The notes beneath the pieces are model-generated. The model was not told the origin of the DNA and searched no databases. It saw only the letters and a program-made list of their open reading frames with translations. Below are positions 27,481 through 53,695 of a stretch of DNA of 64,000 nucleotides, one piece after another. This DNA is from a virus. Numbering within the stretch: position 1 is the first letter of the stretch; every line of letters begins with the position of its first letter. The DNA lies in IMG/VR virus record IMGVR_UViG_3300045988_175607, positions 111,956 to 175,955 of that record. One strand, written 5' to 3'. The position numbers and the translations under genes were made by a program.

Positions 27481-28524
27481 ATGAGGATATTTACTCCAAG
27501 CGAGCAAGAGCTATTTGAGCAGTTGGTTTGTTTGAAACAGCCAGTGCTTTTAAAGGCTTGTAAAAACTATTTGCAACGAATAGGCTATAAAAATGTTATA
27601 GTTACAAAGGATTATGTGGTTGCGGAAGGTGAGATTCCCATAGTTCTTTCTGCGCATTTGGATACTGTATTTAGTGAACCTCCCAAGGCACAAGATATTT
27701 TTTATGACCGCAAGAAGAATGTAATGTGGAGTCCTAGCGGTCTTGGTGCTGATGATAGGGCTGGCGTCTTTGCGATTTTCACTTTGTTGCGCCGTGGACT
27801 GCGCCCGCACATTGTTTTCACCACCGATGAGGAACTTGGATGCCTTGGCGCCGAAGCTTTGATAACGCGCGAATGTCCTTTTAAGGATATTAGGTATATT
27901 ATACAGATAGATCGTCGTGGTTCTAATGATTGCGTTTTCTATGATTTGGATTATCCAGAATTTGAAAAATACATAGAAAGTTTTGGTTTTGTAACAGCCC
28001 CAGGCTCTTTCACAGATATTGTTGTACTTTGCCCAGCGTGGAAGGTTGCGGGAGTTAATTTGTCTACTGGATATTATAATGAACATAGTATTGCAGAGAT
28101 TCTGCGCCCCAATCAATTGATGGCTACAATTGATAAAATCGAGAAAATGCTTCGTGCGGAAAACACTGTACATTGGAAATATATAGGCTATAAAAAGACC
28201 CCGCACTCGCTTTGGAATATTGCCTATGGTATGGGGCCTTTGGAAGATGACACTGAAATAGTAAATTGTACAGGTTGCGGCAAAGAATTTTTTGAGGTTG
28301 AAACATACCCCGTAAAAGACTTTGATACTAATACAATAGAACATTTTTGTATTGATTGTTTGTGCCAATATGCGCACTGGTGCAATTGTTGTTCAGAACC
28401 TTATATAGCAACAGCAAATTATAATCATAAAGATATATGTCCGGCATGTTATGCCGTAGAAGGAGAAGAGAATGGCAGCGAGAGGAACAATAGCGAAAGA
28501 CAAGATAACAAAAAAAATTCTTGA
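27481..28524 (+). CDS. Zn-metallopeptidase-like protein (M20/M28/M42-type motifs) with C-terminal Cys-rich zinc-binding tail
   Basis: HLDTV, GADDRAG, TDEELG metal-ligand-like motifs; C-terminal CTGCG...CIDCLC...CNCC...CPAC. Confidence 0.5.
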   Translation: MRIFTPSEQELFEQLVCLKQPVLLKACKNYLQRIGYKNVIVTKDYVVAEGEIPIVLSAHLDTVFSEPPKAQDIFYDRKKNVMWSPSGLGADDRAGVFAIFTLLRRGLRPHIVFTTDEELGCLGAEALITRECPFKDIRYIIQIDRRGSNDCVFYDLDYPEFEKYIESFGFVTAPGSFTDIVVLCPAWKVAGVNLSTGYYNEHSIAEILRPNQLMATIDKIEKMLRAENTVHWKYIGYKKTPHSLWNIAYGMGPLEDDTEIVNCTGCGKEFFEVETYPVKDFDTNTIEHFCIDCLCQYAHWCNCCSEPYIATANYNHKDICPACYAVEGEENGSERNNSERQDNKKNS

Positions 28525-30886: not shown

Positions 30887-30925
30887 AGCAGAAGTTTTTT
30901 GACTTCTGCTATTTTTTTTGTTATA
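30887..30925 (+). terminator. rho-independent terminator
   Basis: aagcagaagttttttgacttctgct plus attttttttg. Confidence 0.6.
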
Positions 30926-31012
30926 ATTAATATAGGCCAAAAGTGAATAAAAACTAACCACGAAATTTTATATTTTATAGATATAAGATTAAGAGAAAGG
31001 AGTTTTATATTT

Positions 31013-31603
31013 ATGGCTTAGAAAAACTATCCTAATCGAGATTATAATTTCGACGCTGATAATTTTAATGATATATTTAAAAGGCTTGAAAAACTGCGCG
31101 CGGCGCATTATGCGGGCAATGACGCTGGGTCTACCGCCCGAGCACAATTAGCTGATTCTTTTAAAACAAATATAGTTTCAGATAATACCCGTGGCGAAGG
31201 TGAAAATGCTAGCGATACAAGTAGTCCACATAATTTATTAAAAAACTATTTGCTTAAATTATAGACAAGTGCTTTTTTATCTGATAAAGTAAGTAAAGAT
31301 GATATATATAATTTAGAAATCCCCCTTGCCGATGATTTAATTAATGCTAATGAATATGATAATGTCATTGATATAATAAGTAAAATGGAAGGAGAGCCTT
31401 CTACTTATACTAATCATCATGCAGGATATAGTCCAGTTTATAAATGTAATGCGCATGATAATAGCGCGAATTATAATGATGAACGTTATCAAAATAATCA
31501 AAATATAAGAAATACAGAATGTGTTGGCACTGGAAAATGGTATTCAGATTTTCTTTTTCCTAATGGAAAACATAGTTGTACTTGGGGAGTAGATTACTCA
31601 TAA
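31013..31603 (+). CDS. precursor-like protein A1 (197 codons) upstream of two radical-SAM genes; in-frame TAG at codons 3 and 84
   Basis: ATG 31013 after agagaaaggag; MA-TAG-KNYPNRDYNFDADNFNDIFKRLEKLRAAHYAGNDAG... continuous with ORF-track 31385-31603; N-terminal region homologous to 37693-38316. Confidence 0.6.
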
Positions 31604-32866
31604 ATGATTTTAAGTTTAATTACATCTAATTCATGCAATCAAAAATGTTCATATTGTTATTTGCATAAAAATCCTGCTTATCAAGAACAAGATAAAAAGC
31701 TTTTACAGGCATTAGATGATGGTAGTTTTTTCAATAATATTATGAATACCATTCACTCTTTACACTATGACGTAAAAGATTTTGATACACTTGATTTTTG
31801 GGGTGGTGAGCCTACCCTATATTTTGATCAAGAAGATTATTTTGTTGACCAAATATTATATAATTTTCCTAATATAAATAAAATCGCATATTCGACAAAT
31901 TTTTCTACAATAGATCAACAGATAGATTTTATTAAGTATTTTAATAACTACATTCGTCATCTGGATTTATCCATTCAAATTTCTTATGATGGAATATTTA
32001 ATAAAATTACCCGTGGGGTTGATCCAAAAGAAATAAAGGAAAAATTAAAGCAATTTGTTTTCTTTTTAAATAAAGTTTATTTTAATAATTTAACTGTAAC
32101 AATTAATTTAAAAGCAACACTGCCTTGGGCTTTTTACCTTCAGCTTTGCACTGATGTAGAAAAATATCAAGAGTATTTAAAACACATTCAAGAATTACAA
32201 AAATATTTTGAAGCTCTTTCTTTGAATAAAAATGTTTTTTTGCGTATTAGTGATTCTATGATTTATCCTACCACAACCTCTCCTACTCATTACACTCAAG
32301 AAGATGGTAGACAATTTGCGCTTGGGGCTTATAATTTATATTTACATAATTTGCCCAATATACCTTTGCGCTTGGTAGAAAAATCTTTTAATGAGCCTTC
32401 TGATTATTGCGGACATATGACAAGGCAACTTTTATTTAAATACGATGGCACTCTGTCTCCTTGCCCCGCAGGGTTTATGGATGATAATGAGGCCAATCTT
32501 AAATGGTTAAAAGAAAATGACCCAGAAGAATATAAACAATTATTAAAAAGTAAATATCTTAGTAAAGAACACGATTATATTATTAGATATGTGGCGCAAG
32601 ACCTTAGAACGTCAGAGCTAACTTTTGTTATGAGTCAAATGTATGATTTGGCGCAAGCCGGCCTAATTTCTCCAGTGTATAAAGATAATGAGGCCGTGAG
32701 GTTCCGACATGCGCAATATTTAATTAACCTTCATTCCTGTTATTACTGGAATTTGCGCACTTCCGGCAGTTTATTCACCTTTTGGAATGATAATATAAAA
32801 TTATTCTGCAATGGATTGTTTGAATTTTATGATTGGATGAAAAATAATGGAACAGTATCAAATTGA
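31604..32866 (+). CDS. radical SAM enzyme (CX3CX2C, GGEP motif), cassette 1 first maturase-like gene
   Basis: SCNQKCSYCYLHK then FWGGEPTLYF; homolog of 38321-39667. Confidence 0.75.
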   Translation: MILSLITSNSCNQKCSYCYLHKNPAYQEQDKKLLQALDDGSFFNNIMNTIHSLHYDVKDFDTLDFWGGEPTLYFDQEDYFVDQILYNFPNINKIAYSTNFSTIDQQIDFIKYFNNYIRHLDLSIQISYDGIFNKITRGVDPKEIKEKLKQFVFFLNKVYFNNLTVTINLKATLPWAFYLQLCTDVEKYQEYLKHIQELQKYFEALSLNKNVFLRISDSMIYPTTTSPTHYTQEDGRQFALGAYNLYLHNLPNIPLRLVEKSFNEPSDYCGHMTRQLLFKYDGTLSPCPAGFMDDNEANLKWLKENDPEEYKQLLKSKYLSKEHDYIIRYVAQDLRTSELTFVMSQMYDLAQAGLISPVYKDNEAVRFRHAQYLINLHSCYYWNLRTSGSLFTFWNDNIKLFCNGLFEFYDWMKNNGTVSN

Positions 32867-34244
32867 AAATAATAAATTATTAACTTCTTTTATAGAAAGA
32901 CATTATTACAATGATCCAAATAAAGGAATTGAATTGTTCGTGCGCGCAAAATGTCCATCTAATTGTGTTTATTGTTATTTTAAAAAGTATGGTTGTGAAT
33001 TATATCCAGAAGATAAGCAAACTGATGAACAAATATTAAACAATTTAAATATATTTTTAGATTATTATATTAAAAAACAATTTACTAAAGATATTTCCTT
33101 ATTCTCTGGCGAGTTTATTATTGATGGATTATTTGGGCAAATTATGCAAATCTTTTATGATAAATTTACTAATCAATATTATAAACCTCGTGCAATAATA
33201 ATTTCTGATGATGGAGACTTTATTTCATATCCAGAAAAAATCCAAGAGGTAGAAGATTGGATTGCGCGACTGGCTTCAATAGGCATAGGTTTACATTTTA
33301 GTTTATCAGTTGATGGTAAATATATGGATATGAATCGTTCGCGGTCTCAGCGCACCGATGAGTATTACAAAACTCTTATTGATTTTTGTGATAAACACTT
33401 TTTTGCATTTCACCCAATGGTAAGTGCTTTCAATATCGACAAATGGATTGAAAATTATGATTGGTGGAAAAGTGTCCTTGATGATTTTCAATTTTCGCGA
33501 CTTATGTTACTTGAAGTGCGCGATGATAATTGGACAAATGATAAGATTCAAGAATACCTAAAATTCTTAAATTATGTTATTGAGGATAATTTTAAAAATC
33601 GTTATCATGGTAATCGCGAATTAATGGCGCAAAGAATTACTAATCAATTGTATTATACTACAGCTTCATATGATCCGCTTACCATTCCTTGCTTCTTAGA
33701 TGAAGATGGTCGCGATTATTTTGGTATGTGTTGTACTATAAAAACTAATTTGTGCGTGCGCTTAGGTGACCTTGCGATTGTACCTTGTCACCGCACCGCC
33801 TATCCGCAATTTGTCAATGGACATTTTGAAGTAATAGATGGAAAAATAAAAGGTATAGTTTGTGAAAACTACGAAATTCTTTCAGCTATTGGATCGTGGA
33901 ATCGTAATAGCGCACCTCGATGTAATTCCTGCAAAATAAAACAATGGTGTAGTGGAGGATGCCTTGGTTCTAATTTTGAATCAACTCATGAATTATTTAT
34001 TCCTCCTAAAACTGTATGTAATTTTATGCAGGCTAAATATAAATTTTTAATAATGAAATATGAAGATATGGGGTTGATGCCTTATATCAAAAACCATTTA
34101 TCTGAATTTCAATATAAATATATAGAAGATTATATGGATGTTTTATCCAAGGAGATTTTAATATATGGACGAGTTTTATCAGATAGAATCAATGATGCGC
34201 AAAATCAAGGAAAGTCTATCAGCCAATTCGTCAACCTTAGTTGA
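32847..34244 (+). CDS. radical SAM / SPASM-domain enzyme, cassette 1 second maturase-like gene
   Basis: KCPSNCVYCYF (CX3CX2C), FSGEF; C-terminal SPASM Cys cluster CCTIKTNLCVRLGDLAIVPCHRT...CNSCKIKQWCSGGC; homolog of 39633-41114. Confidence 0.75.
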   Translation: MEQYQIENNKLLTSFIERHYYNDPNKGIELFVRAKCPSNCVYCYFKKYGCELYPEDKQTDEQILNNLNIFLDYYIKKQFTKDISLFSGEFIIDGLFGQIMQIFYDKFTNQYYKPRAIIISDDGDFISYPEKIQEVEDWIARLASIGIGLHFSLSVDGKYMDMNRSRSQRTDEYYKTLIDFCDKHFFAFHPMVSAFNIDKWIENYDWWKSVLDDFQFSRLMLLEVRDDNWTNDKIQEYLKFLNYVIEDNFKNRYHGNRELMAQRITNQLYYTTASYDPLTIPCFLDEDGRDYFGMCCTIKTNLCVRLGDLAIVPCHRTAYPQFVNGHFEVIDGKIKGIVCENYEILSAIGSWNRNSAPRCNSCKIKQWCSGGCLGSNFESTHELFIPPKTVCNFMQAKYKFLIMKYEDMGLMPYIKNHLSEFQYKYIEDYMDVLSKEILIYGRVLSDRINDAQNQGKSISQFVNLS

Positions 34245-34410
34245 TTTCGTAGAATTGAGCAAAGCTTATTGGCTGACTAGAAAATATTGTGATGATAGCT
34301 TTCTTTCAGAAAGCATTGAAAGATTATTTTTTGATATTATTCAGTTACAATATGAATATGACCTTTTCCACGATGAAGAAATTCGTAAGGCCATATTAAG
34401 TTTTTATTGA
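34165..34410 (+). CDS. small protein (~80 aa) after the rSAM pair, homolog of 41086-41325; candidate partner or chaperone protein
   Basis: Shared (R/K)KYC(D/S)(D/S)S..E.IE.L motif; start uncertain (overlaps upstream gene by 80 nt). Confidence 0.4.
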   Translation: MDEFYQIESMMRKIKESLSANSSTLVDFVELSKAYWLTRKYCDDSFLSESIERLFFDIIQLQYEYDLFHDEEIRKAILSFY

Positions 34411-34484
34411 TTTTTTATAAAATTTATTATATAATATAATATGAAGAAAGAAGTTGAAAAGAAACTTTTTTCTTCATAATTTTT

Positions 34485-34574
34485 GTGGGGTTGGCAGAGT
34501 TTGGTTTAATGCATCGGCCTTGAAATCCGACGAGCGTAAAAGCTCCGCTAGTTCGAATCTAGCACCCCGCGCCA
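34485..34574 (+). tRNA. tRNA-Ser(UGA), type II with long variable arm
   Basis: GTGGGGTTGGCAGAGTTTGGTTTAATGCATCGGCCTTGAAATCCGACGAGCGTAAAAGCTCCGCTAGTTCGAATCTAGCACCCCGCGCCA; anticodon loop CUUGAAA. Confidence 0.65.
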
Positions 34575-34590
34575 CAGGGAGGATATTTAT

Positions 34591-35133
34591 ATGAAAATTG
34601 AGAATATATTCAAGCATCTACATCTTATTAATAAACACAGATGGTTTGTTTTTAAACGATGTTGTAAAGCGGGAATTTTATTGCAGGGGTTAACTCATGA
34701 TTTGTCTAAATATTCTCCCGTTGAATTTTGGGAATCGGTAAAATATTATAATGGAACTAAAAGCCCAATAAGTCAGTGCAAGGAAGAAAATGGCTGGAGC
34801 GCGGCTTGGCAGCATCATAAAGGTCGCAATAAACATCATTATCAATATTGGATAGATACTCCTGCGGTCGATGGCACTTTTAATTTTATAAAGATGCCGT
34901 ATAAATATGCGCTTGAGCTTATTTGTGACTATCTTGGTGCAGCGCAAGCTTATTTGGGAGATAAGTTTTCTTATGAAGCTGAATACGAATGGTGGATTAA
35001 TGAAAATTCTCTTGCTATGCATCCAGATACTTATAGTTTTATTAATACTATGCTGTTTACTATGAAAATGTCAAACAGTGACGATTGTTTACAAAGAGAC
35101 AAAAGTCTTCAAATTTATAATAGTATTTCCTAA
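34591..35133 (+). CDS. His-rich hypothetical protein (180 aa)
   Basis: THDLSKYSP...WQHHKGRNKHHYQYW; RBS gggaggata. Confidence 0.5.
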   Translation: MKIENIFKHLHLINKHRWFVFKRCCKAGILLQGLTHDLSKYSPVEFWESVKYYNGTKSPISQCKEENGWSAAWQHHKGRNKHHYQYWIDTPAVDGTFNFIKMPYKYALELICDYLGAAQAYLGDKFSYEAEYEWWINENSLAMHPDTYSFINTMLFTMKMSNSDDCLQRDKSLQIYNSIS

Positions 35134-35560: not shown

Positions 35561-36418
35561 ATGAAGAAAATCTTTAGTGCAATTCTTTGCGTAATTATGA
35601 TTCTTGGTTGTACCTCCGTTGCCTTTGCTACTGGTTGGGGCAAGCTGGAGGAAAATGATACTACTTGTGAAAATTATAATATAAATCTTTATAAGCTTGA
35701 GCGAGTTGTTGGTGTAATGGGCGAGGCCTTTAAGGTTGTGCCTGATGCAACTGCCAAGGTTGGCGATGTAGTTTACTTTACTGGCTATGCTCTTGGTGAA
35801 AATGCTATTAATGCTATGATTCTTGCTTTTACTGAGGAAGATTATGTACTGACTGATCTTGCTAATATTAAGGCCGAAGGTTCTATCACTACTGATGACC
35901 TTGGTGGTGTTATGCTACCCGTGTTCTCAGCTCGTGTAACTGGTAACAATCCTAATGTTTCTGTTACTATTAAGTCTGGTAATGATGTTATGAAGTGCTT
36001 CTATAAGGGCCAGCCGGTTGTTGCTTCTAAGGATGCTCGTGAGGTTACTCTTGGTGAGTATAAATTTATTCGTGATGAGCTGAATGTTGTAACTGAGGTT
36101 TGGTATAATGGCGTTCAGATTACTCCTGTGATGAGCAAGGAAGAGTGGGATAAGTCCACCGCTGGTCTTGTTGAGCTTGGCATAACCATGGATGCAGTTA
36201 AGGCTCGTCAGATTTATATGAGCAATGAACATCTTGTAAGGAACTTTAGTAATTACAAGGAAATTACTAAGATTATAACTTGGGGCGCCAATACTGCCGT
36301 AGTGCCTGTAAATCCTGCACTGCCCCAGACTGGTGATATGTCCACTCTGAGCATTGCGCTCATGGCTATATTTGCTGCGATTGTAATTATTGGTGTTCGT
36401 AAGATTAACGTTCATTAA
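35561..36418 (+). CDS. secreted LPXTG-type cell-wall-anchored protein (sortase substrate)
   Basis: N-terminal signal peptide MKKIFSAILCVIMILGCTSVAFA; C-terminal LPQTG, hydrophobic stretch, then RKINVH positive tail. Confidence 0.7.
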   Translation: MKKIFSAILCVIMILGCTSVAFATGWGKLEENDTTCENYNINLYKLERVVGVMGEAFKVVPDATAKVGDVVYFTGYALGENAINAMILAFTEEDYVLTDLANIKAEGSITTDDLGGVMLPVFSARVTGNNPNVSVTIKSGNDVMKCFYKGQPVVASKDAREVTLGEYKFIRDELNVVTEVWYNGVQITPVMSKEEWDKSTAGLVELGITMDAVKARQIYMSNEHLVRNFSNYKEITKIITWGANTAVVPVNPALPQTGDMSTLSIALMAIFAAIVIIGVRKINVH

Positions 36419-36572
36419 TTTTATAAAATAAATAAAAAGCGATAAGATTTTTATCTTATCGCTTTTTTTGTGTTTATAAAGAAAAAATGGTATAATATTA
36501 ATATATAAAGGCCCAATTGCTTGAATTGGCTTTAAATAAAAGACTTATAGAATAGGAAGAAGTATTTTTACC

Positions 36573-37295
36573 ATGAGTAAAGTATTAAGCATAGATTTGG
36601 ATTGGATATTGGGAGATTGTATATCATTATATAATGATTTAGTAAGAGGAAATATCCCAATGTTAGAATTATGGGAAGAAATAGAAAAAGAGCGGCATTG
36701 CGAATCATTCTTGTCATATGACAAGGCGCATTTTGAGCAATTAAAAAAACTTGTTGTTAAATTAAAACCTAAACAAGTTTATTGGGGGAATGATCATAGT
36801 TCTATTATTTTAGCTATTAAGGATGCAATGGATAAAAAAATAATATCAGCGCCTTTTGTTTTATATAATATAGATCATCACCATGATATTAATTATTCAC
36901 CACAGCAGGAAGAGGCAGTTGATAAATATGATGTAGCTAATTGCGGGTCTTGGATTGCTTATTTAAACAAATATGAATTGATTGATGAATATTTTTGGAT
37001 TAAAAATAAATATTCAACAGATTATCATGGTCAAAAGCAATTTTCACCAAAACGACAAGAAATTGAATTAAAAAAACAAGACACTTTAAATTTTTTATTT
37101 AATGAAGATTTTGATATTATTTATATCACTTCTTCTGACTGTTATATTCCCCCTAAGTTCTATAATATATTAGATGATTTTAAAAAAATGGTTTTATATT
37201 ATTATCCAAATCTAATTGATTATGAAAATCAAACTTCTCATGGTACAATGGTTTATACTTCAAATTATTTTAATAATTGTAAAGGAGTAAAATAA
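36573..37295 (+). CDS. hypothetical protein (240 aa)
   Basis: ORF after a conserved promoter-like element at ~36480. Confidence 0.5.
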   Translation: MSKVLSIDLDWILGDCISLYNDLVRGNIPMLELWEEIEKERHCESFLSYDKAHFEQLKKLVVKLKPKQVYWGNDHSSIILAIKDAMDKKIISAPFVLYNIDHHHDINYSPQQEEAVDKYDVANCGSWIAYLNKYELIDEYFWIKNKYSTDYHGQKQFSPKRQEIELKKQDTLNFLFNEDFDIIYITSSDCYIPPKFYNILDDFKKMVLYYYPNLIDYENQTSHGTMVYTSNYFNNCKGVK

Positions 37296-37300
37296 ATATA

Positions 37301-37690
37301 ATGAATACTCTTAATGTTATTTTAAAAGACCCTGAAAGTGGCGAAATTTTAAAAACTTTTGATCTTGAAGGAGACAATTATTTTTTACGTGCCGACGTTT
37401 ATTCAACAGGCGTTGAAGGAGTAAATTTAAGTCATGTTATTTCAAAAGATGCTGATTTAAGCCAAGAACAAGGGCTGATTTTAAAAATATATGAATACTA
37501 TATGCATCAAATTAGACAAGGTAAGCCAGATATGATGATGGAAATTCAGCTTAATAATACGCTTACGCTTTATTCTTCAACTTATGTTAGAAAGATGATT
37601 TACTTTGTAACCACACCTGGCAATCCTGCTGATGCAGCTACAGCTTTACGTGTTGAGAATATTGACATTGATGGAGGAAGGATTAATTAA
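37301..37690 (+). CDS. hypothetical protein (129 aa)
   Basis: RBS aaaggagtaaaataaatata. Confidence 0.5.
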   Translation: MNTLNVILKDPESGEILKTFDLEGDNYFLRADVYSTGVEGVNLSHVISKDADLSQEQGLILKIYEYYMHQIRQGKPDMMMEIQLNNTLTLYSSTYVRKMIYFVTTPGNPADAATALRVENIDIDGGRIN

Positions 37691-37692
37691 TT

Positions 37693-38316
37693 ATGGCTGG
37701 ACGCTATACTTTAGCCCAAGCTTCTGATATAAATAGTGTTTTTTCTAGACTTGAACAGCTAAGACGAGCTCATTATGAAGGCGCAGGCCAGACAGCAGAA
37801 GGAAAAAATGCCTTAGCTTCTACTTTTTAGACTGCTCCTGTGGTTCAAACATCTACTATTGAAGAGCCATATACTTTAATGAAATCTTACTTGAACGCTT
37901 TACGAAAAAGCGTCTTTTTAACTACTGTGACAGAAGAGCAAATTAATGAAGTCACAGTTCCAGAAGCTGGAGCATTAATTGAGTTTGCAAATTTAAATGT
38001 TGCAGAAAATTTAGTAACAACTTTAGAAAGTAAACCCTCAAGCTATACAACAAATTTTAGTGGACACCATACAACAAATTTTAGTGGCCACAATTCCTCA
38101 GATTTTGGAACAGATTTTTCTTGTTTTATGCATAATGGTTCAGATTTTTCCCCTGAACCAACTTTTTCATCATCTTTTAGAGTATGTACAAAATGCTTTA
38201 AACCTTTCCAAGATTGTTTTAGTAGTCATAGAACTTCAGCATTTGGCAATTCATCTTCATTTGATATATCAGATGGAATACAACATTCTAGGGTGTCATT
38301 CGGTATAGGATTTTAA
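37693..38316 (+). CDS. precursor-like protein A2 (208 codons) with in-frame TAG at 37828-37830; Ser/Phe-rich repetitive C-terminus
   Basis: MAGRYTLAQASDINSVFSRLEQLRRAHYEGAG...STF-TAG-TAPVVQ...; C-terminus TTNFSGHHTTNFSGHNSSDFGTDFSCF...SDFSPEPTFSSSF; N-terminal region homologous to A1. Confidence 0.6.
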
Positions 38317-38320
38317 TAAA

Positions 38321-39667
38321 ATGGAACAAAAAAAAGTTTTAGGTATTATAAGTGCAGCAAAATGCAATTTAAATTGTAGTTATTGTTATTTACATAAGAA
38401 TCAATCTTATATTGAAGAAGATAAAAAAATTATTGCAGCAATGCAAGATGGTTCATTTTTAGCAAATATTAAGCGCAGTCTTTACGCTTTAAATGAATCT
38501 TATAATAATTTTTATCGATTAGAATTTTGGGGAGCAGAGACTTCATTACATTTTATTGATGGGTCAGATTTTTTTAAAGATTTAATATTAACTTTTCCAA
38601 AGTTAGAAGAAATAGCTTATTCCACTAACTTTCGGACGGGCAATGAGCAACACTTACATTTAATTGATTTGATAGAACAATATGCAGAGCAACGTGTTAT
38701 ACTTGAAATGCAAATCTCTGTAGATGGGCCAACAGCAATATTACAAAAAACTCGTCATTATAATTATGAAGATTTAGAGAAAGATGTAATTGACTTTATT
38801 GATATTCTTAATAAAAAGAAATTAAAGAAAACAAAAGTTGTAATTTCTTATAAATCAACCCTTCCTTGGAGCCTTTATCATGAGATATGTTCTTCTACTT
38901 CTGGATTAGTTGATTATTTAGATTTTTGGTCAAATACTGAAAATATGATGTGGGATAATGTAATTAATAAAAATGTTGCTTTCAGTACTGGTTCTTGTTT
39001 TGGGCCAGCTCTTGAATATCCTTATAGCTATACAATTCAAGATGGATTAGATTTTTCAGCTTTTGCGCAAAAAATTGATCGATTAAAATTAGACGAAAGA
39101 TATAATCGACCATCTAATATGCCTTTGCTAACAAGTGGTTTTGTAAAAGAACGTGAACTTCAAATTTATGAATTTTCTGGTTTTCAATGCGGTCAAATGA
39201 ATTCTAATCTTTTGTTTAGATATGATGGGACTCTTTCTCCTTGTTCAAATGGTTTTTTAGATCGATCAATAGACAATTTAAATTGGCTTAAAGAAAATGA
39301 TCCAGTAGAATACACTCATGTTTTAAATACTCGTAAATTAAGCACTACTGTCGATGAGAATGGTCAGGCTGATTTAGATGATTTAATAAAAAAAGTGCGG
39401 CATCGTAAAGAGTTTTGGAAATATCATGCTGATACTGTTGTAAGTATTACAAATTCTGAAATGTATGAATTAGCTATGGCACGACAAATTTCACCTATTT
39501 ATGCGAAAGATTCAGCTTTACGTTTTAAACATAGTCTTTTTATTGTAAAAAAGAATGCTTGTTATTTTAGTAATTTGCGAGAAACAGGCAGCCCCTATAC
39601 GCCTCCAGAAAGCTTAATAAAATTATATTGTAATGGATTGGGAGAATACCATGAATTCAGAAGATAA
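38321..39667 (+). CDS. radical SAM enzyme, cassette 2 first maturase-like gene (paralog of 31604-32866)
   Basis: AAKCNLNCSYCYLHK; shared AYSTNF, LLFRYDGTLSPC, NLNWLKENDP blocks. Confidence 0.75.
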   Translation: MEQKKVLGIISAAKCNLNCSYCYLHKNQSYIEEDKKIIAAMQDGSFLANIKRSLYALNESYNNFYRLEFWGAETSLHFIDGSDFFKDLILTFPKLEEIAYSTNFRTGNEQHLHLIDLIEQYAEQRVILEMQISVDGPTAILQKTRHYNYEDLEKDVIDFIDILNKKKLKKTKVVISYKSTLPWSLYHEICSSTSGLVDYLDFWSNTENMMWDNVINKNVAFSTGSCFGPALEYPYSYTIQDGLDFSAFAQKIDRLKLDERYNRPSNMPLLTSGFVKERELQIYEFSGFQCGQMNSNLLFRYDGTLSPCSNGFLDRSIDNLNWLKENDPVEYTHVLNTRKLSTTVDENGQADLDDLIKKVRHRKEFWKYHADTVVSITNSEMYELAMARQISPIYAKDSALRFKHSLFIVKKNACYFSNLRETGSPYTPPESLIKLYCNGLGEYHEFRR

Positions 39668-41114
39668 AATATTGACTTATTTAGATTCAAACCAACAGGA
39701 AAGAAATGCTTTATTAAATAGCTTTCTTGAAAGATATTTTTATCAAAATTTTCGTGAAGGGGAAAAGCCAGCCGCTTATCGTGCCGTTGAACTTTTTATT
39801 AAAGGCAATTGTCCAAATAATTGCGCTTACTGTTATTTAAAACGGCATGGTAAAGAATTATATCCAATTAATGAACAGTCTAATGAACAAATATTAAAGA
39901 ATATTAAAATCTTTTTAGATTTTTATAAAAAACAACATTTTAGAACAGAATTTTCTTTATTTTCATCAGATTTATTTAAAGATGGTTTTATTTATGATGT
40001 ATTAGATGTTTTTTATGAAGAATTTAAAGACAAATATAATCCTTATCGTCCCATTAGTATTATGATTCCAGACCATGGAAATTTTCTTTATTCTCAAGAA
40101 GAAACTGATAAATTACAGGGCTATATTGATAAATTCTTTGATATTAACTTACGCATTATAATAAGTTTATCAATAGATGGAAAATTTATGGATCAAAATC
40201 GCGGTGATGCTTCGCGCACTGATGAATTTTATCAACGAGCCATAGAATTTGCTTCTAAGAATTTTTATGCATTTCACCCGATGGTAAGCGCCATTAATAT
40301 TGATAAATGGATTGATAATTATGATTGGTGGCATAGTAATGAAGTTCCTGCTCATCTTGCTGATCGCTTAATGATGTTAGAAGTACGTGATGATAATTGG
40401 ACTCCAAAAGCGCTTAAAGATTATCTTAATTTTTTAAATCATGTTATTGATGAAGAATTTGCGCGTACAAATTATGATAAAGCTTTATTTGCAAAACGTG
40501 TTGTAGGTAGCGATAAATATCCTGGAAAAGGATATGATAATATTCTTCTTATACATACTCTTAATCCAGTAACAGAGTGCGATTTCGCAAGTACAGGATG
40601 TTCTGTCGCAAAAAATTTATGTGTAAGAGCTGGGGATTTAGCTATTGTACCTTGTCATAGAACTTCTTATGAACAATATGTGATAGGTAATTATGTAGTA
40701 GAAAATAACGAAATTGTTGATGTAAAATGTAAAAATTGGGAAATTGCTTCAGCGGTTTATTCTTGGAATCGCAATAGTTTTCCTCAATGTCCCGATTGCG
40801 CAATTCGATATTGGTGTGTTGGGCCTTGTTTTGGTTCAAATTTTGAGTCTACTGGAGACTTGTTCTGGACACCAATTTCAGTTTGTAATTTGTTTAAAGC
40901 AAAAACTCATTTTCAATTTATAAAATATGAAGAAATGGGCTTAATGCCGTATATTGAAAAAGAATTGGATGACGCAAACGCTTGGGACAAAATTAAAAAA
41001 CATATGGAAAAAATGAAAGGACAATTTGATAATTGTGGAGAATTGCTCATAGATAAAATCTCAGATACAATCAGACATCAAAAGAATGCAGGAGACGTTA
41101 AGTTATTCTCCTAA
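39633..41114 (+). CDS. radical SAM / SPASM enzyme, cassette 2 second maturase-like gene (paralog of 32847-34244)
   Basis: GNCPNNCAYCYLKR; AFHPMVSAINIDKWIDNYDWW; SPASM cluster CVRAGDLAIVPCHRT...CPDCAIRYWCVGPC. Confidence 0.75.
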   Translation: MDWENTMNSEDKILTYLDSNQQERNALLNSFLERYFYQNFREGEKPAAYRAVELFIKGNCPNNCAYCYLKRHGKELYPINEQSNEQILKNIKIFLDFYKKQHFRTEFSLFSSDLFKDGFIYDVLDVFYEEFKDKYNPYRPISIMIPDHGNFLYSQEETDKLQGYIDKFFDINLRIIISLSIDGKFMDQNRGDASRTDEFYQRAIEFASKNFYAFHPMVSAINIDKWIDNYDWWHSNEVPAHLADRLMMLEVRDDNWTPKALKDYLNFLNHVIDEEFARTNYDKALFAKRVVGSDKYPGKGYDNILLIHTLNPVTECDFASTGCSVAKNLCVRAGDLAIVPCHRTSYEQYVIGNYVVENNEIVDVKCKNWEIASAVYSWNRNSFPQCPDCAIRYWCVGPCFGSNFESTGDLFWTPISVCNLFKAKTHFQFIKYEEMGLMPYIEKELDDANAWDKIKKHMEKMKGQFDNCGELLIDKISDTIRHQKNAGDVKLFS

Positions 41115-41325
41115 TTTTGAAGAAAATATTGCAATGATTTATGCATTAAAAAAATATTGTTCTTCTGATAGCGAAATAGAAAAATTAATTGATTGTTATA
41201 TAAATATAGTATATAATAATTATATAGAAAAAAAGAAACTTGAAGCAACTCATTGCCCTTCCTTTTATTATATATCAGATTCTCAATATAATGAAGGAAT
41301 AATGAATAAACTATTGAAAATGTAA
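41086..41325 (+). CDS. small protein after cassette 2 (homolog of 34165-34410)
   Basis: LKKYCSSDSEIEKLIDCY versus TRKYCDDSFLSESIERLF. Confidence 0.4.
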   Translation: MQETLSYSPNFEENIAMIYALKKYCSSDSEIEKLIDCYINIVYNNYIEKKKLEATHCPSFYYISDSQYNEGIMNKLLKM

Positions 41326-41337
41326 GGATTAATAATT

Positions 41338-42243
41338 ATGATTAAAACACCTATTTGGAATATCGGTGGCGGAATAAGACATGGCCAAAATTTAATAAAT
41401 TATTTTATTGATCAAAAGCAGTTTTATGATACAACTCATAAGCTTTTTAATTATGTTTATGATTCTATTTTTGGATTAAAATGGAATGGTGGACGTGTTT
41501 GTATGCCTGAGCATACAAAAACTTTAAAAGATCTTTTTGCAGAAATTAGCACTTATAATGATTTAGGAGTTGGTTTTAATTGGAGTTTTACAAATCTTCT
41601 TTTAACTCCAGAGGATTTAAATGATGAATATTGTAATTTAGTTCTTGAAGCTACCAATAATTCTTTAAATGGTGTAATTTTAACAAGCGATATTTTGCGC
41701 GAACATGTGCGGAAAAATTATCCTAATATGCGCATTATTTATTCTGTATGTAATGGTTTAAAAACTATTGAACAGTATAAAAAAGCGTTGGATGAAAATG
41801 ATATTGTCGTGTTACATCCAGATTTTAATCATAATTATCCTTTTCTTACTGAACTTGCAAACGTAGGTGGCGCCAATAGAATAGAAGTAATGGTCAATGA
41901 TGTTTGTTCTTTTGGATGCCCCTTCAGAGAACAACATTATAAAAATCTTAGTATTTATAATAAAGTCCAATCTACATGTCCTATTATTCATGATAAAACT
42001 GAACTTGATTATGGTTCAGGTTTAGGATGTTTAGCGGTTCGTAATGGTTATAATAAAGATCATAGGAATAAGCTTTCTTTTACTGATTTAGATTATATGC
42101 TTGATTTGGGTTTTCAACATTTTAAACTTATTGGTCGAGAACATGAATGGCAATATTATTATGATGTTGATTTGCGGCCAAATCTTGAACAATATTGGGC
42201 AAGAAAGCTTGTCAAAGAATGCGGGCAACATTTACATATATGA
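41338..42243 (+). CDS. Cys-rich hypothetical protein (301 aa) downstream of cassette 2
   Basis: RBS aaggattaataatt; CSFGCPF...STCPIIHD...LGCLAV. Confidence 0.5.
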   Translation: MIKTPIWNIGGGIRHGQNLINYFIDQKQFYDTTHKLFNYVYDSIFGLKWNGGRVCMPEHTKTLKDLFAEISTYNDLGVGFNWSFTNLLLTPEDLNDEYCNLVLEATNNSLNGVILTSDILREHVRKNYPNMRIIYSVCNGLKTIEQYKKALDENDIVVLHPDFNHNYPFLTELANVGGANRIEVMVNDVCSFGCPFREQHYKNLSIYNKVQSTCPIIHDKTELDYGSGLGCLAVRNGYNKDHRNKLSFTDLDYMLDLGFQHFKLIGREHEWQYYYDVDLRPNLEQYWARKLVKECGQHLHI

Positions 42244-42446
42244 TGATTTTAAATTTTCATAATTGGGATTTTTCTTAGTCAAGAGAAATCCCAATTAAAA
42301 TTGAAGGATATACCTATATTCTTAATAGTGATTTAGAATCTGATTTTGATTTAATTAATAATAATACTTCTAAATTACTTTTTACAGAATTATTCCAAGA
42401 AATAAAAACAGTAGATTTAGCAATTTATCCTTATCTTTCAATAAAA

Positions 42447-42791
42447 TTGTTTGAAAATAGTGATTATATAGATTTGGGTAAAGTGCGCGAAAGCACTTGT
42501 CGTGTTATAGGATACATGGGCAGTACAAAAGATTATCATGAACAAGAGCGATTAAGTATTAAATTTGAATTTAAAAATCGTTTTATTATTGATAACGGCG
42601 GTTTAATTTATTGTGATACTCAAGAATGTCCTTTTTATGATAATGAATACTGTTTACGATATAAAACTGTATTGAAATTAAAAAATAATGAACCTATTGT
42701 ATGTAAACAATGTTTTATAAATATACAACCTTCAGTTTTTAATCAGTTGCAAAATGTAGCTTATCAAAATATGATAAAGAATAGGGAATAA
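42447..42791 (+). CDS. hypothetical protein (114 aa)
   Basis: ORF followed by terminator gggaataaaaaattccc plus T-run. Confidence 0.45.
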   Translation: MFENSDYIDLGKVRESTCRVIGYMGSTKDYHEQERLSIKFEFKNRFIIDNGGLIYCDTQECPFYDNEYCLRYKTVLKLKNNEPIVCKQCFINIQPSVFNQLQNVAYQNMIKNRE

Positions 42792-42903
42792 AAAATTCCC
42801 TTTTATTTTTTTACATTTTTATAGCGTTATTTTTCCTTTTTTATTTTTATTAAAAAATATCGTATAATATATATAAAATAAAGGAAGGAATAAGAAGGAA
42901 AAT

Positions 42904-46525: not shown

Positions 46526-48013
46526 ATGAGTAATGCTTTCATAAATGGCCTGCGCGAAATGAGCAATTATACCTATACTGAGAATGGCGCTGTAAGCTTG
46601 CGGAGTACTCTTGATGCAGTTTACGATCTGTTTGCACTGGGTGCGGCGTATCGTCAGCGTAGCGAAGAAGATATTATAAATCTTTTTAAGAAAGCTTATA
46701 GGGAAAATGCGGAACTGGCTATGAAGTGCCTGTTCTATATTCGTGATGCGCGTGAAGGTCAGGGCGAGAGGCGCTTCTTCCGTGTATGCATGAATTGGCT
46801 GGCTAAGTCTGATGACCGTGAAGCTGCAAAGCGCAATCTTCAGTATGTATCTGAATTTGGCCGATACGATGATTTGTATTGTTTCATTGATACTCCTCTT
46901 CAGAATGATGCTCTTGAAATAATGCGTCAGCAGATAGCTCTGGATATGTCTTGTAAGACTCCTTCTTTGCTTGCAAAGTGGTTAAAGTCTATTAATACTT
47001 CCAGCGCAGAATCCCGTAAACTTGCTAACATTACTCGTGAATATTTTGGTATGACTCATAAGCAGTATCGCCGCACTCTGTCTATACTGCGTGAGCGTAT
47101 TAACGTACTTGAAAAACTTATGTCTGCCGGTGAGTGGGATAAGATTGAATTTGATAAAATACCTTCTCGCGCGGGACTTATATATCGCAATGCTTTTGCT
47201 CATCGAGATGTATTGCGTGAACGCTATGAAAAGTTTATAATGGATAAGAATACTAAGGTTAATGCTAAGGTGCTTTATCCTTATGAATGTGTTAAGAGCG
47301 CGCTCGATCATATAGACCACAAAATTTATGGTTGTGCAGATAAGCTTGAACGCGCCGCAATTAATAAGTATTGGGATAATCTCAGAGATTATTTCGATGG
47401 CGCCGCGTTTAATGGTATGGCTTTGGTTGATACGTCCGGTTCAATGACTATAAAGCGCAATTCCATAGCTCCTATCAATATTTCTATTGCTCTTGGACTT
47501 TATTGTGCTGAAAAGTGTTCTGGACCTTATGCTGGACATTTTATTACCTTTGAGTCCAATCCTCATTTTATCGAAGTGGAAGGTAAGGATTTTGTTGAAA
47601 AGGTTGAAAATATAAGCAATGCACCTTGGGGCAACAGCACCAATGTTGAAAAGGCTTTCGACTTGATGCTTGAAACAGCAATAAGGAATAATCTTTCTCA
47701 GAAAGATATACCTGAAAATCTTATCGTTATTTCTGATCAAGAATTTGATCAAACGGGCTACAATAATCGTATTTTTAATACTTTATGTGATGGTATCAAA
47801 AATAGGTGGAAGGCTGTTGGATATGAGATGCCGCATTTGGTATTTTGGAATTGTAATGCTCGACATGATCTGATTCCTATGAAAGATGATGGTAATGTTA
47901 CTTTTGTTTCTGGTGCAAGCCCCGTTATCTTTGAAATGATTATGTCTGGTAAAAAGGGCATTGAAGTAATGAAAGAGACGCTTGAATGCGAGCGTTACTC
48001 TTGCATTCATTGA
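46526..48013 (+). CDS. von Willebrand factor A (vWA) domain protein, DUF2828/TROVE-like (495 aa)
   Basis: MIDAS motif in MALVDTSGSM; ...VISDQEFDQ; N-terminal FGRYDDLYCF. Confidence 0.6.
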   Translation: MSNAFINGLREMSNYTYTENGAVSLRSTLDAVYDLFALGAAYRQRSEEDIINLFKKAYRENAELAMKCLFYIRDAREGQGERRFFRVCMNWLAKSDDREAAKRNLQYVSEFGRYDDLYCFIDTPLQNDALEIMRQQIALDMSCKTPSLLAKWLKSINTSSAESRKLANITREYFGMTHKQYRRTLSILRERINVLEKLMSAGEWDKIEFDKIPSRAGLIYRNAFAHRDVLRERYEKFIMDKNTKVNAKVLYPYECVKSALDHIDHKIYGCADKLERAAINKYWDNLRDYFDGAAFNGMALVDTSGSMTIKRNSIAPINISIALGLYCAEKCSGPYAGHFITFESNPHFIEVEGKDFVEKVENISNAPWGNSTNVEKAFDLMLETAIRNNLSQKDIPENLIVISDQEFDQTGYNNRIFNTLCDGIKNRWKAVGYEMPHLVFWNCNARHDLIPMKDDGNVTFVSGASPVIFEMIMSGKKGIEVMKETLECERYSCIH

Positions 48014-48079: not shown

Positions 48080-48153
48080 TGCGGGCTGGTGAAATGGTAG
48101 CCACAGCGCTCTCTAAAAGCGCCTTTTTCTGAGTTCAAGTCTCAGGCCCGCCG
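48080..48153 (+). tRNA. suppressor tRNA with CUA anticodon (reads UAG)
   Basis: tGCGGGCTGGTGAAATGGTAGCCACAGCGCTCTCTAAAAGCGCCTTTTTCTGAGTTCAAGTCTCAGGCCCGCCG; anticodon stem GCGCT/AGCGC, loop CUCUAAA, T-arm CTGAG/CTCAG; acceptor pairing imperfect in my hand fold. Confidence 0.6.
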
Positions 48154-48270
48154 CGGTATCATGTAGGGGCCTTTTCGTGGCGATACTATTTAAACTAATT
48201 CTACTAAACTCTCAGTATTTTGCTGAGAGTTTTTTTTTATTAAAAATTTATGATATAATATTTATAGAAA

Positions 48271-52969: not shown

Positions 52970-53695
52970 ATGGCATTGATAGATATAACAAATCAAAAAT
53001 TTGGACGACTTGTTGTTTTGTATAGAGATAGAGAAGCAGAAATAAAAAGAAAAAGTAGAAACGCAATGTGGCGATGTCGTTGTGAATGTGGTAATGAAGT
53101 GAGTGTTGTGGGTAAGGATTTACGCTCAGGAAAAACTTTATCTTGTGGATGTTTACAAAAAGAAAGAGCTTCACAAGCAAATAGTAGTAATTTAATTGGA
53201 CAACGTTTTGGTAAATTAGTAGTAATAAAACAAGTTGTTTCTGAAAAGCATCGCTCAAGATGGTTATGTAAGTGTGATTGTGGTAATATGGTTGAAGTAA
53301 AAGCCCGCGAATTATAGAGGGGGGATACTCAATCTTGTGGATGTTTGTTTTCTGCTGGAGAAGCAAAGATATCTCAAATATTGGCAGAACTACAATTGGA
53401 ATATAAAAAAGAATATATTTTTAAAGATTATCCAACTGCCAGATTTGATTTTGCTCTATTAAAAAATAAACAGGTATATTGTCTTATTGAATATGACGGT
53501 CCTCAACACTTTATTAATACTGCTAATTCTGGTGGATGGAATACTATTGAAAGATATAAAACAATTACCCATCCTAAAGATTTAGAAAAAAATAAGTATT
53601 GTCAAGATAACAATATCCCTCTTATTAGAATTCCTTATAATGACTATAACAATTTAACGAAAGAATGGCTTGAAAGGAAAATAAATAATGTATAA
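52970..53695 (+). CDS. putative endonuclease: N-terminal zinc-binding repeats plus C-terminal Vsr/DUF559-like PD-(D/E)xK domain; one in-frame TAG at 53315-53317
   Basis: ORF-track 52970-53317 and 53345-53695 are in one frame across TAG (…KAREL-TAG-RGDTQSCGCLFSAGEAK…); repeats W.C.C.CGN and C-terminal LIEYDGPQHF. Confidence 0.5.

Follow-up and report, generated by a model that had tools for sequence, protein, structure and literature searches.

Two diverged copies of a gene cassette lie in a 64,000-nucleotide stretch of DNA from a large gut phage (positions 111,956 to 175,955 of IMG/VR record IMGVR_UViG_3300045988_175607), referred to here as the window. In each copy, the gene for a two-part protein, A, directly precedes the genes for two different radical S-adenosylmethionine (rSAM) enzymes, B and C. 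The cassettes, of which the second (cassette 2) is the main subject, probably form a phage-specific system that modifies protein A in the manner of RiPPs (peptides that are made on ribosomes and modified after translation). A is proposed as the substrate because it is strictly linked to B and C and duplicated with them, because a conserved head contrasts with a changing tail, because C carries a SPASM domain and because enzymes of RiPP type are found as neighbours. The gene content, cofactor motifs, recoding, synteny and family distribution are direct observations. Coordinates refer to the window, and the features of both cassettes are collected in Table 1.

The A-B-C triad and its proteins

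Alignment of C homologues was used to gather 40 viral loci and 12 from metagenome-assembled genomes (MAGs), which reduce to 47 distinct loci; almost all of their contigs measure 100-200 kb. The B gene adjoins the C gene in every one of the 47, and an A-type gene can be recognised in 40, nearly always directly 5' of B; three small genes separate A from B in locus L024, and several of the loci without a recognisable A are truncated at a contig end. A is also duplicated along with B and C, with two copies in the window and three in a 96%-identical relative of this phage. Most MAG contigs fall in bins of Clostridia (Lachnospiraceae, Oscillospiraceae, Peptococcaceae), and single loci come from bins of Bacilli, Staphylococcaceae and Muribaculaceae. 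A preliminary description of this DNA had proposed that metagenomes be searched for copies with other cores, and such copies are numerous: in addition to the 47 loci, a profile of the A head alone matched, among 1.84 billion representatives, at least 351 clusters at E ≤ 1e-3 (counted at 50% identity) and 108 at E ≤ 1e-10. A tblastn search of 50,697 deposited phage genomes with A2 and C2 gave no match, and no description of a phage rSAM/SPASM or RiPP system of this sort was found in the literature searched.

In A2, residues 1 to about 117 form a conserved helical domain, and residues from about 118 to 207 form a disordered tail rich in Ser, Phe, Thr and Gly. AlphaFold2 modelling of P0209, a full-length public protein 98% identical to A2, with a 43-sequence alignment, gave five helices within residues 10-112 (pLDDT 70-79) and no structure for residues 118-207 (pLDDT about 30). 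The preliminary description had read the N-terminal part as a conserved leader. The conservation is real, but it spans about 115-125 residues rather than about 35, runs across the TAG codons and coincides with a domain of roughly 115 residues, helical and folded, within a protein of some 200, and thus with more than a short leader peptide. The head has no match in Pfam, PHROGs or NCBIfam (searched with A1 and A2, and in Pfam also with 25 N-domains of the family), its fold has none in PDB or BFVD, phage proteins included, and A1 and A2 match no NHLP or Nif11 leader in NCBIfam or Pfam.

Ser makes up 23% and Phe 16% of the A2 tail, which also has Thr, Gly, His and Asp and contains the units NFSGH, DFGT, DFSC, DFSP and TFSS, as well as a C-x2-C-F motif common to its nearest relatives. 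The internal repeats noted earlier hold for A2, where Tandem Repeats Finder (TRF) recovers TTNFSGH twice, and are absent from the tail of A1. Tails diverge faster than heads: at growing evolutionary distance, head and tail identities are 98/92, 83/61, 59/34 and 57/32%, and P0163, P0165 and P0174 have near-identical heads with tails that differ in repeat number.

Most A proteins belong to a second, "SNG" subtype, with the head pattern SD..WY..LN ... ASD.N.L..K...K.D.YL ... VKCRN and tails of 60-450 residues that carry units such as KSNGT, RSYGT, CSNTCSGQA and HSSKSCT and frequently end in T.IDI.N; outside the window, A proteins reach 560 residues. The heads of the A1/A2 and SNG types align colinearly (hhalign E 3e-5, probability 73%). 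Pooled tails consist to 58% of Asn, Ser, Gly and Thr and have few aliphatic residues. In matches to the family profile, the head is almost always N-terminal with the low-complexity tail behind it. P0328 has the reverse order, repeat tail first and head last, as would be expected of a portable recognition module, and in P0341 a Hint/intein-like domain (CLIPGT ... VHN) is fused behind the repeat tail; the two proteins bear on head modularity and on processing at the tail end.

Across 52 tails, S/T-N is enriched 1.57-fold and N-G 1.84-fold. The N-glycosylation sequon was rejected as a general rule, given that N-x-S/T reaches only 1.14-fold over the same tails and includes none of the 13 Asn of A1; in A2, all five Asn lie in N-x-S, and genes for family 2 glycosyltransferases (GT2) adjoin cassettes elsewhere. 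The aromatic-X-X cyclophane was rejected as a common substrate as well: it suits A2 and loci L034 and L038, and many tails are only 2-7% aromatic. The X-Y-G motif of splicease, a third rejected candidate, occurs in some SNG tails and not in A1 or A2.

B2 has the radical-SAM motif C15-x3-C19-x2-C22 and C-terminal cysteines C290, C308 and C414, all invariant in 26 homologues, the latter in a twitch-like arrangement that may hold a single auxiliary cluster. C2 combines C60-x3-C64-x2-C67 with a seven-Cys SPASM domain (C323, C341, C386-x2-C389-x5-C395-x3-C399, C418), also invariant, in 33 homologues. B lacks an N-terminal extension, and the cluster motif of C is preceded by only about 55 residues. 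Matches to PF04055 fall under the gathering score for B2 (1.8e-4) and C2 (1.9e-3) and above it for B1; C2 is marginal by score for TIGR04085 (26.5 bits, cut-off 27), to which B2 has no match.

Curated libraries place the enzymes only loosely. PHROGs labels them as "radical SAM domain-containing protein", and the best curated match of B1 is the twitch-domain family NF033640 (44.7 bits, cut-off 170). Against characterised families (PapB, GggB, YhhB, XyeB, GrrM, HxsB/C, SCIFF, anSME and nif11-type), B and C score 12-35 bits where the cut-offs are 268-650. The nearest of these are mostly peptide maturases (PapB, GggB, YhhB, HxsB), with anSME best for B2, and MoaA and viperin are among the weak matches. 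Searches of PDB sequences with B2, C2 and the E profile gave nothing significant.

Paralogous cassettes and the reading of TAG

The cassette-2 unit, F-G-A2-B2-C2-D2-E2-H, is flanked by promoter-like and terminator-like sites and reaches past both ends of the region first delimited (36526-42801 versus 37693-42243). The cassette-1 unit, A1-B1-C1-D1 (30899-34478), is bracketed in the same way. In loci L004-L007, from other phages, the order is A-B-C-D-H-E-F, unlike that of cassette 2.

Table 1. Features of cassettes 1 and 2 and the candidate suppressor tRNA (window coordinates)
Feature	Position	Strand	Description	Basis
A1	31013-31603	+	196 aa; TAG at 31019-31021 (codon 3) and 31262-31264 (codon 84)	
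B1	31604-32866	+	rSAM paralogue of B2	
C1	32847-34244	+	rSAM/SPASM paralogue of C2	
D1	34165-34410	+	small protein; followed by terminator-like hairpin 34440-34478	
Promoter-like site	36526-36553	+	5' of the cassette-2 unit, after terminator-like hairpin 36434-36467	consensus scan only
F	36573-37295	+	240 aa, UPF0489-like, NIDHHHD motif; putative metal-dependent hydrolase	Pfam
G	37301-37690	+	129 aa, immediately 5' of A2	open reading frame
A2	37693-38316	+	207 aa; TAG = Gln at 37828-37830 (codon 46)	
Tandem duplication in A2	38045-38091	+	24 nt; encodes TTNFSGH twice	TRF, 2.0 copies, 95% match
B2	38321-39667	+	448-aa radical-SAM enzyme	
C2	39633-41114	+	493-aa radical-SAM/SPASM enzyme	
D2	41026-41325	+	small protein, about 99 aa; TAG at 41050-41052	
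E2	41338-42243	+	301-aa U32-type TIM-barrel protein; putative Fe-S enzyme	
H	42195-42791	+	about 180-198 aa, Cys-rich C-terminal part; in-frame TAG at 42276-42278; start uncertain	
Terminator-like hairpin	42783-42801	+	end of the cassette-2 unit	
Candidate suppressor tRNA	48080-48154	+	anticodon CUA; cloverleaf fold	ARAGORN

The gene-for-gene paralogy of the four genes A to D, which the preliminary description had put at 40-50% identity by eye, is borne out at the slightly lower level of 34-44%. By BLASTP with composition-based statistics, the read-through products of A1 and A2 are 34% identical over 128 aa (E 7e-20), B1 and B2 37% over 448 aa (E 1e-85), and C1 and C2 44% over 470 aa (E 2e-144); the value for A also answers the objection that the shared leader might reflect composition only. 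D1 and D2 have no direct BLAST match to each other. Each matches the D gene of L007 (E 1.8e-6 and 8.9e-4), and the two can be aligned once the start of D2, first taken as a 79-aa open reading frame (ORF), is extended 5' through its in-frame TAG, which then stands opposite a Gln of D1.

C1 shares no more identity with C2 (44%) than the two do with the C genes of other phages (45-48%), and C2 is 66% identical to one metagenomic homologue, which argues against recent diversification inside this genome. By these comparisons the two cassettes appear to be old paralogues, whether through ancient duplication or through separate acquisitions. The earlier proposal of a dedicated maturase pair for each precursor stands, in that each A has its own rSAM pair, and so does diversification, which is wide in phages, across the 47 loci and 351 clusters.

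That cassette 2 is an assembly artefact, or a decaying and non-functional duplicate, is refuted. No support for it was found, although the in-frame stops could suggest pseudogenes under the standard code. DNA identity between the cassettes occurs only in patches, at 64-74%, and both cassettes are present in two independent assemblies, IMG/VR contig 3300045988_177309 and GenBank JALFQD010000409.1 (174,861 bp, in the bin of a Clostridium MAG), with 86-96% protein identity, so that duplication during assembly, a concern raised at the outset, is excluded. Furthermore, the ORFs are intact when TAG is read as Gln, the TAG codons are conserved in relatives or exchanged there for CAA or CAG, and public metagenomes contain 118-173 member sequences for A2-, C2- and E2-like proteins.

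Sequence comparison indicates that the phage uses genetic code 15, in which TAG encodes Gln. Under the standard code, A2 is split into a 45-aa ORF (37693-37830) and a 158-aa ORF in the same frame, with a single TAG between them. The alignment of A1 and A2 continues across this TAG and across both TAG codons of A1, such that each presumed precursor is one gene. Among 21 substitutions of TAG relative to two assemblies of the 96%-identical phage, 15 are exchanges with CAA or CAG, and these include all of those in real genes; the remaining six fall in spurious overlapping frames. Many ORFs of the window are longer when TAG is read as sense, and a candidate suppressor tRNA was found, which would allow A1, A2, D2 and H to be translated. 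Its derivation from the phage's own tRNA-Gln was considered and dropped, as the similarity was not obvious. In this phage, A1, A2, D2 and H carry TAG, and B, C, E2, F and G are free of it.

Phages that read TAG as Gln have been described for gut hosts among the Firmicutes and Bacteroidetes, and the published model ties recoded codons to late genes (bioRxiv 10.1101/2021.08.26.457843). The present phage resembles these code-15 gut phages: some of its genes contain in-frame TAG, it has a candidate tRNA(CUA) of its own, and TAG is exchanged with CAA or CAG. Nothing differs in kind; the new element is that TAG occurs in the proposed substrate genes of a modification system and, here, not in the genes for its enzymes. 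Elsewhere in the family, a lone TAG lies between A and B in L013, L017, L026 and L037, which could represent either two genes or an A-B fusion of 810-950 aa. In L034 (6508-9245), B and C are in several fragments with TAA and TGA as stops, which suggests other recoding (of TGA) or decay of the cassette.

Directly 5' of the tRNA(CUA) is a gene for a Ro/TROVE-like RNA-binding protein (46526-48013; DUF2828 and DUF7788; phrog_850, 3.6e-126), and a gene for an RNA ligase (53688-55085) is near both. The two genes together resemble an RNA repair or quality-control module beside the recoding tRNA.

No third cassette is present inside the window. The 96%-identical relative has one, with a C protein 32% identical, just past the region that matches the end of the window, and by synteny the third cassette of this phage would lie just beyond the 3' end of the window. 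A PhoH-like gene (62996-63838), with five in-frame TAG codons, stops early at ...NSARLG. In the relative (L024, 3553-9880), the same N-terminal part of PhoH is followed by A, three small genes, B, a 98-aa gene and C. After cassette 3 come, as judged by eye, a 146-aa ORF that resembles the C-terminal half of PhoH, an endolysin-like gene with a cell-wall-binding domain and a holin-like gene with a transmembrane segment. Cassette 3 seems to have been inserted into PhoH, or to split it, beside the lysis genes.

Several other genes of the window stand out. A gene 2.5 kb 5' of cassette 1 (27481-28524) encodes an M28/M20-type peptidase-like protein with a Cys-rich, zinc-ribbon-like C-terminus and is the sole peptidase candidate near the cassettes. 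Between the cassettes lie a gene for a DUF5662 protein (34591-35133; 5.6e-32), after a tRNA-Ser (34485-34574), and a gene for a 285-aa protein (35561-36418) with a signal peptide, a C-terminal LPQTG sortase motif and a membrane anchor, suggesting a phage-encoded surface protein anchored in the cell wall and pointing to a Gram-positive host. Farther 3', an 813-aa ORF (56367-58808) resembles major vault protein (Pfam MVP_shoulder 7.6e-20, Vault_3 2.4e-10). A 372-aa ORF (60992-62110) has three in-frame TAG codons, repeated GG.I.G, a right-handed beta-helix-like character and no PHROG match; it is possibly a tail spike or depolymerase.

Proposed modification of protein A and alternative readings

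From the features described above we infer not only the role of A as substrate but also a type of chemistry, a timing and a biological role of the product. Through the helical head of about 115 residues, the two radical-SAM enzymes encoded directly 3' would recognise A, and the disordered low-complexity tail (S/N/G/T with Phe/Tyr/Trp and some Cys) would be modified many times. B, with a putative single auxiliary cluster, and C, with the two auxiliary clusters of its SPASM domain, would each abstract hydrogen atoms from the tail. The outcome, as usual for this enzyme class, would most probably be intrachain cross-links of C-C, C-S or C-O type, or else C-alpha epimerisation. Optional tailoring may be supplied here by E2, the UPF0489-like hydrolase F and the Cys-rich H, and elsewhere by YcaO, GT2 and Fe-S aldo-keto reductase proteins. 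A fixed triad with changing tailoring enzymes would follow the logic of RiPP pathways, and, if A is modified, the genomic arrangement would fit the general definition of a RiPP, a ribosomal precursor altered after translation by enzymes encoded nearby under the guidance of a leader or follower.

Among the optional genes that recur beside the triad, U32-like ones are seen in 12 loci by BLAST clustering and in 18 by HMM, frequently as adjacent pairs, and GT2 glycosyltransferases in 8, one of them joined to an additional rSAM domain. YcaO proteins recur in 6 loci and an aldo-keto reductase with 4Fe-4S domains in 3, and HNH endonucleases are present too. In cassette 2, F matches Pfam UPF0489 just under the cut-off (1.5e-5), and its homologues adjoin E in L004-L007 and L038. 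H is conserved in related cassettes, including its in-frame TAG, and has a weak Fe-S_biosyn match. G has no family match, and homologues of it were not detected in the other loci.

E2 was noted earlier as a Cys-rich protein that follows only the second copy; this holds within the window, and the enrichment is mild, at eight Cys. C190-x3-C194 and C231 are invariant, and C55 and C99 are also conserved. E2 has the TIM-barrel fold of U32 proteins, yet no Pfam U32 match (PF01136) at E<0.1; one 46%-identical homologue carries PF01136. U32 enzymes have the four-Cys motif CX6CX15CX3/4C, and those characterised hydroxylate quinones and RNA bases (PMC6747719). E2 is like the U32 enzymes UbiU/UbiV (O2-independent hydroxylases), TrhP and RlhA in having the CX3C that approximates the CX3/4C part of the motif, together with the further Cys; E genes of other loci are often adjacent paralogue pairs, as in the UbiU-UbiV heterodimer. 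Unlike these enzymes, E2 has another Cys spacing and a single copy in the window, and its proposed substrate is a protein tail. E2 might perform O2-independent hydroxylations, which would suit an anaerobic host.

The known substrates of U32 enzymes suggest another reading, in which B, C and E act on tRNA or rRNA, a nucleotide or a cofactor and A is a mere conserved neighbour, such as a scaffold or regulator. The richness of the window in RNA genes, with nine tRNAs as well as the Ro/TROVE-like protein and the RNA ligase, would agree with this, as would the generic twitch-domain rSAM family matched best by B1 and the weak matches to MoaA and viperin. This reading is nonetheless very unlikely, given the strict linkage and co-duplication of A with B and C and the full SPASM domain, which is characteristic of enzymes that act on peptides or proteins. 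Moreover, the hypervariable A tails differ between co-resident cassettes that each have their own enzyme pair, the YcaO neighbours are peptide-backbone enzymes, and E is missing from cassette 1 and most loci.

The proposed modification of A is best compared with RiPPs made by rSAM/SPASM enzymes, namely ranthipeptides (PapB), SCIFF (CteB), sactipeptides and the triceptides made by the 3-CyFEs XyeB, YhhB, GrrM, OscB and FxsB. As in these systems, a precursor gene lies directly 5' of the maturase, C has CX3CX2C and a seven-Cys SPASM domain, a conserved recognition part precedes a variable and sometimes repetitive core, and aromatic-X-X or Cys-X3 units abound in some A tails. In NCBIfam, C1 and C2 both match PapB best (E 6e-8 and 2e-8). 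In contrast to these systems, B and C score 12-35 bits against cut-offs of 310-650, the recognition part of A is a helical domain absent from the libraries, a RiPP recognition element (RRE) is missing, two different rSAM enzymes are always paired, and the genes are phage-borne. A tails reach 450 aa, and many have nearly no aromatic residues or Cys, such that no single type of cross-link fits all.

None of the individual families accommodates the enzymes. C1 and C2 score 32.2 and 33.7 bits for PapB (NF047865, cut-off 340), and the A2 tail has no Cys-X3-Asp repeats. Scores for XyeB (TIGR04496), YhhB (NF041707), GrrM (TIGR04261) and FxsB (TIGR04269) are 12-26 bits against 310-450, and aromatic-X-S/T units are confined to A2 and its relatives rather than shared by the wider family. 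For SCIFF/sactipeptide maturases (TIGR03974, cut-off 425), which act on a six-Cys core, scores are 13-21 bits, and for anSME (TIGR03942, cut-off 349) B2 and B1 score 29.5 and 23 bits.

The His-Xaa-Ser system (HxsA, HxsB, HxsC, HxsD) likewise has four genes, for a repeat protein, two rSAM enzymes and a small protein, and B1 (9.5e-6) and B2 (3.2e-4) match HxsB weakly. It differs in that A has repeats of other kinds, an unrelated N-terminal domain and a phage context; scores for HxsB (TIGR03978) and HxsC (TIGR03977) are 14-25 bits against 370 and 268, and A2 has no H-x-S repeats. Proteusins and spliceotides have large NHLP or Nif11 leaders and rSAM epimerases such as PoyD, and the splicease PlpX acts on repeated X-Y-G motifs, also in proteins. 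They are similar to the A system in a leader of about 100 aa, cores rich in Asn, Gly, Ser and Thr, and, as proposed here, an rSAM enzyme that acts repeatedly on a single substrate, and some A tails of the family contain repeated S-Y-G or N-Y-G. They are unlike it in that A1 and A2 lack both X-Y-G and an NHLP or Nif11 match, and the enzymes score at the level of noise for rSAM_nif11 (23-24 bits, cut-off 519).

Several observations weigh against modification of A by a RiPP-like system. B and C fall far below the NCBIfam cut-off of every characterised maturase, and PqqD/RRE domains are absent from B, C and D at E ≤ 0.1 in Pfam and NCBIfam. A sequence motif common to all A tails was not found, which implies that enzymes and substrates may have diverged together. 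Searches with Pfam and NCBIfam revealed neither a protease or transporter nor a leader-cleavage motif, and the cassette is no textbook RiPP cluster. For the same reason, the release of several small cores from a multi-core precursor, as first envisaged, is unsupported, and the product may stay a modified protein.

The timing of synthesis meets objections of its own. Synthesis of A would have to await the reading of TAG as Gln, which the published model of recoding places late in infection, while B and C could be made earlier, and the TAG-free genes could allow these Fe-S enzymes to mature ahead of their substrate. TAG also occurs within non-structural genes of the window, such as PhoH and an SHMT-like gene, and B and C are TAG-rich in other phages (12 and 5 codons in L015); a schedule of enzymes first and substrate later is at best peculiar to this phage. 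In addition, the Rfam tRNA covariance model does not report 48080-48154 even at E ≤ 1, suggesting an atypical tRNA, and the tRNA(CUA) call is only moderately secure.

Alternatively, A may serve a structural purpose, in the virion or elsewhere, for instance as a fibre, whisker or decoration protein; the head would anchor or oligomerise it, and B, C and E would cross-link, glycosylate or hydroxylate the low-complexity tail. A would still be the substrate, but the result would be a stable material that retains the head and frees no peptide. In L023, L025 and L041, A begins 2 nt after two tail-fibre-like genes, and in L026 the upstream gene matches PHROG "head decoration" and "virion structural protein" families. 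GT2 genes in 8 loci, the length of the longest tails, the missing protease and transporter, and in-frame TAG, which recoded phages typically have in their late or structural genes, would also agree with a structural role. We consider this role possible, though on balance unlikely: tail-fibre-like or head-decoration-like neighbours are found in only about 6 of the 47 loci, the cassettes in the window lie among tRNAs and auxiliary genes and outside any structural module, and the head resembles no phage protein in fold and has no PHROG match.

A more speculative proposal, to which we give little credence, is that A is a low-complexity "material" protein of the phage rather than a precursor of small peptides. 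At a late stage of infection, the rSAM pair, with U32, YcaO and GT2 enzymes, would cure its tails covalently to give a gel, shell or fibre, either inside the cell or on the virion, and the process would be gated by the switch in genetic code. The result would be a viral protein material vulcanised by enzymes. In sequence, with NFSG/SNFGG, SYG and SNG repeats, the tails are reminiscent of FG-nucleoporins or proteins of FUS type.

Implications for phage biology

The modification of a ribosomal product by rSAM/SPASM enzymes is of a kind already known. Relative to the libraries and literature searched, the head domain, the two enzyme subfamilies and their obligatory pairing, the restriction to phages, the layout in several cassettes and the link to stop-codon recoding are new. 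If A is modified by B and C, the cassettes would represent a large, phage-restricted branch of ribosomal peptide and protein modification that is missing from curated libraries, found in phages of 100-200 kb from gut Clostridia and comprising at least 351 A clusters at 50% identity. The head would be a new type of recognition domain, and two radical-SAM subfamilies that are always paired would probably perform new chemistry.

The system would also be a specific example of stop-codon recoding that keeps the making of an enzyme apart from that of its substrate. Gene calling under the standard code hides the substrate genes, given that A1 halts after two codons, and therefore genome-mining pipelines would miss such systems. 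The presence in one phage of several diverged cassettes with different tails points to diversifying pressure, for example from competition, host interaction or evasion of defence.

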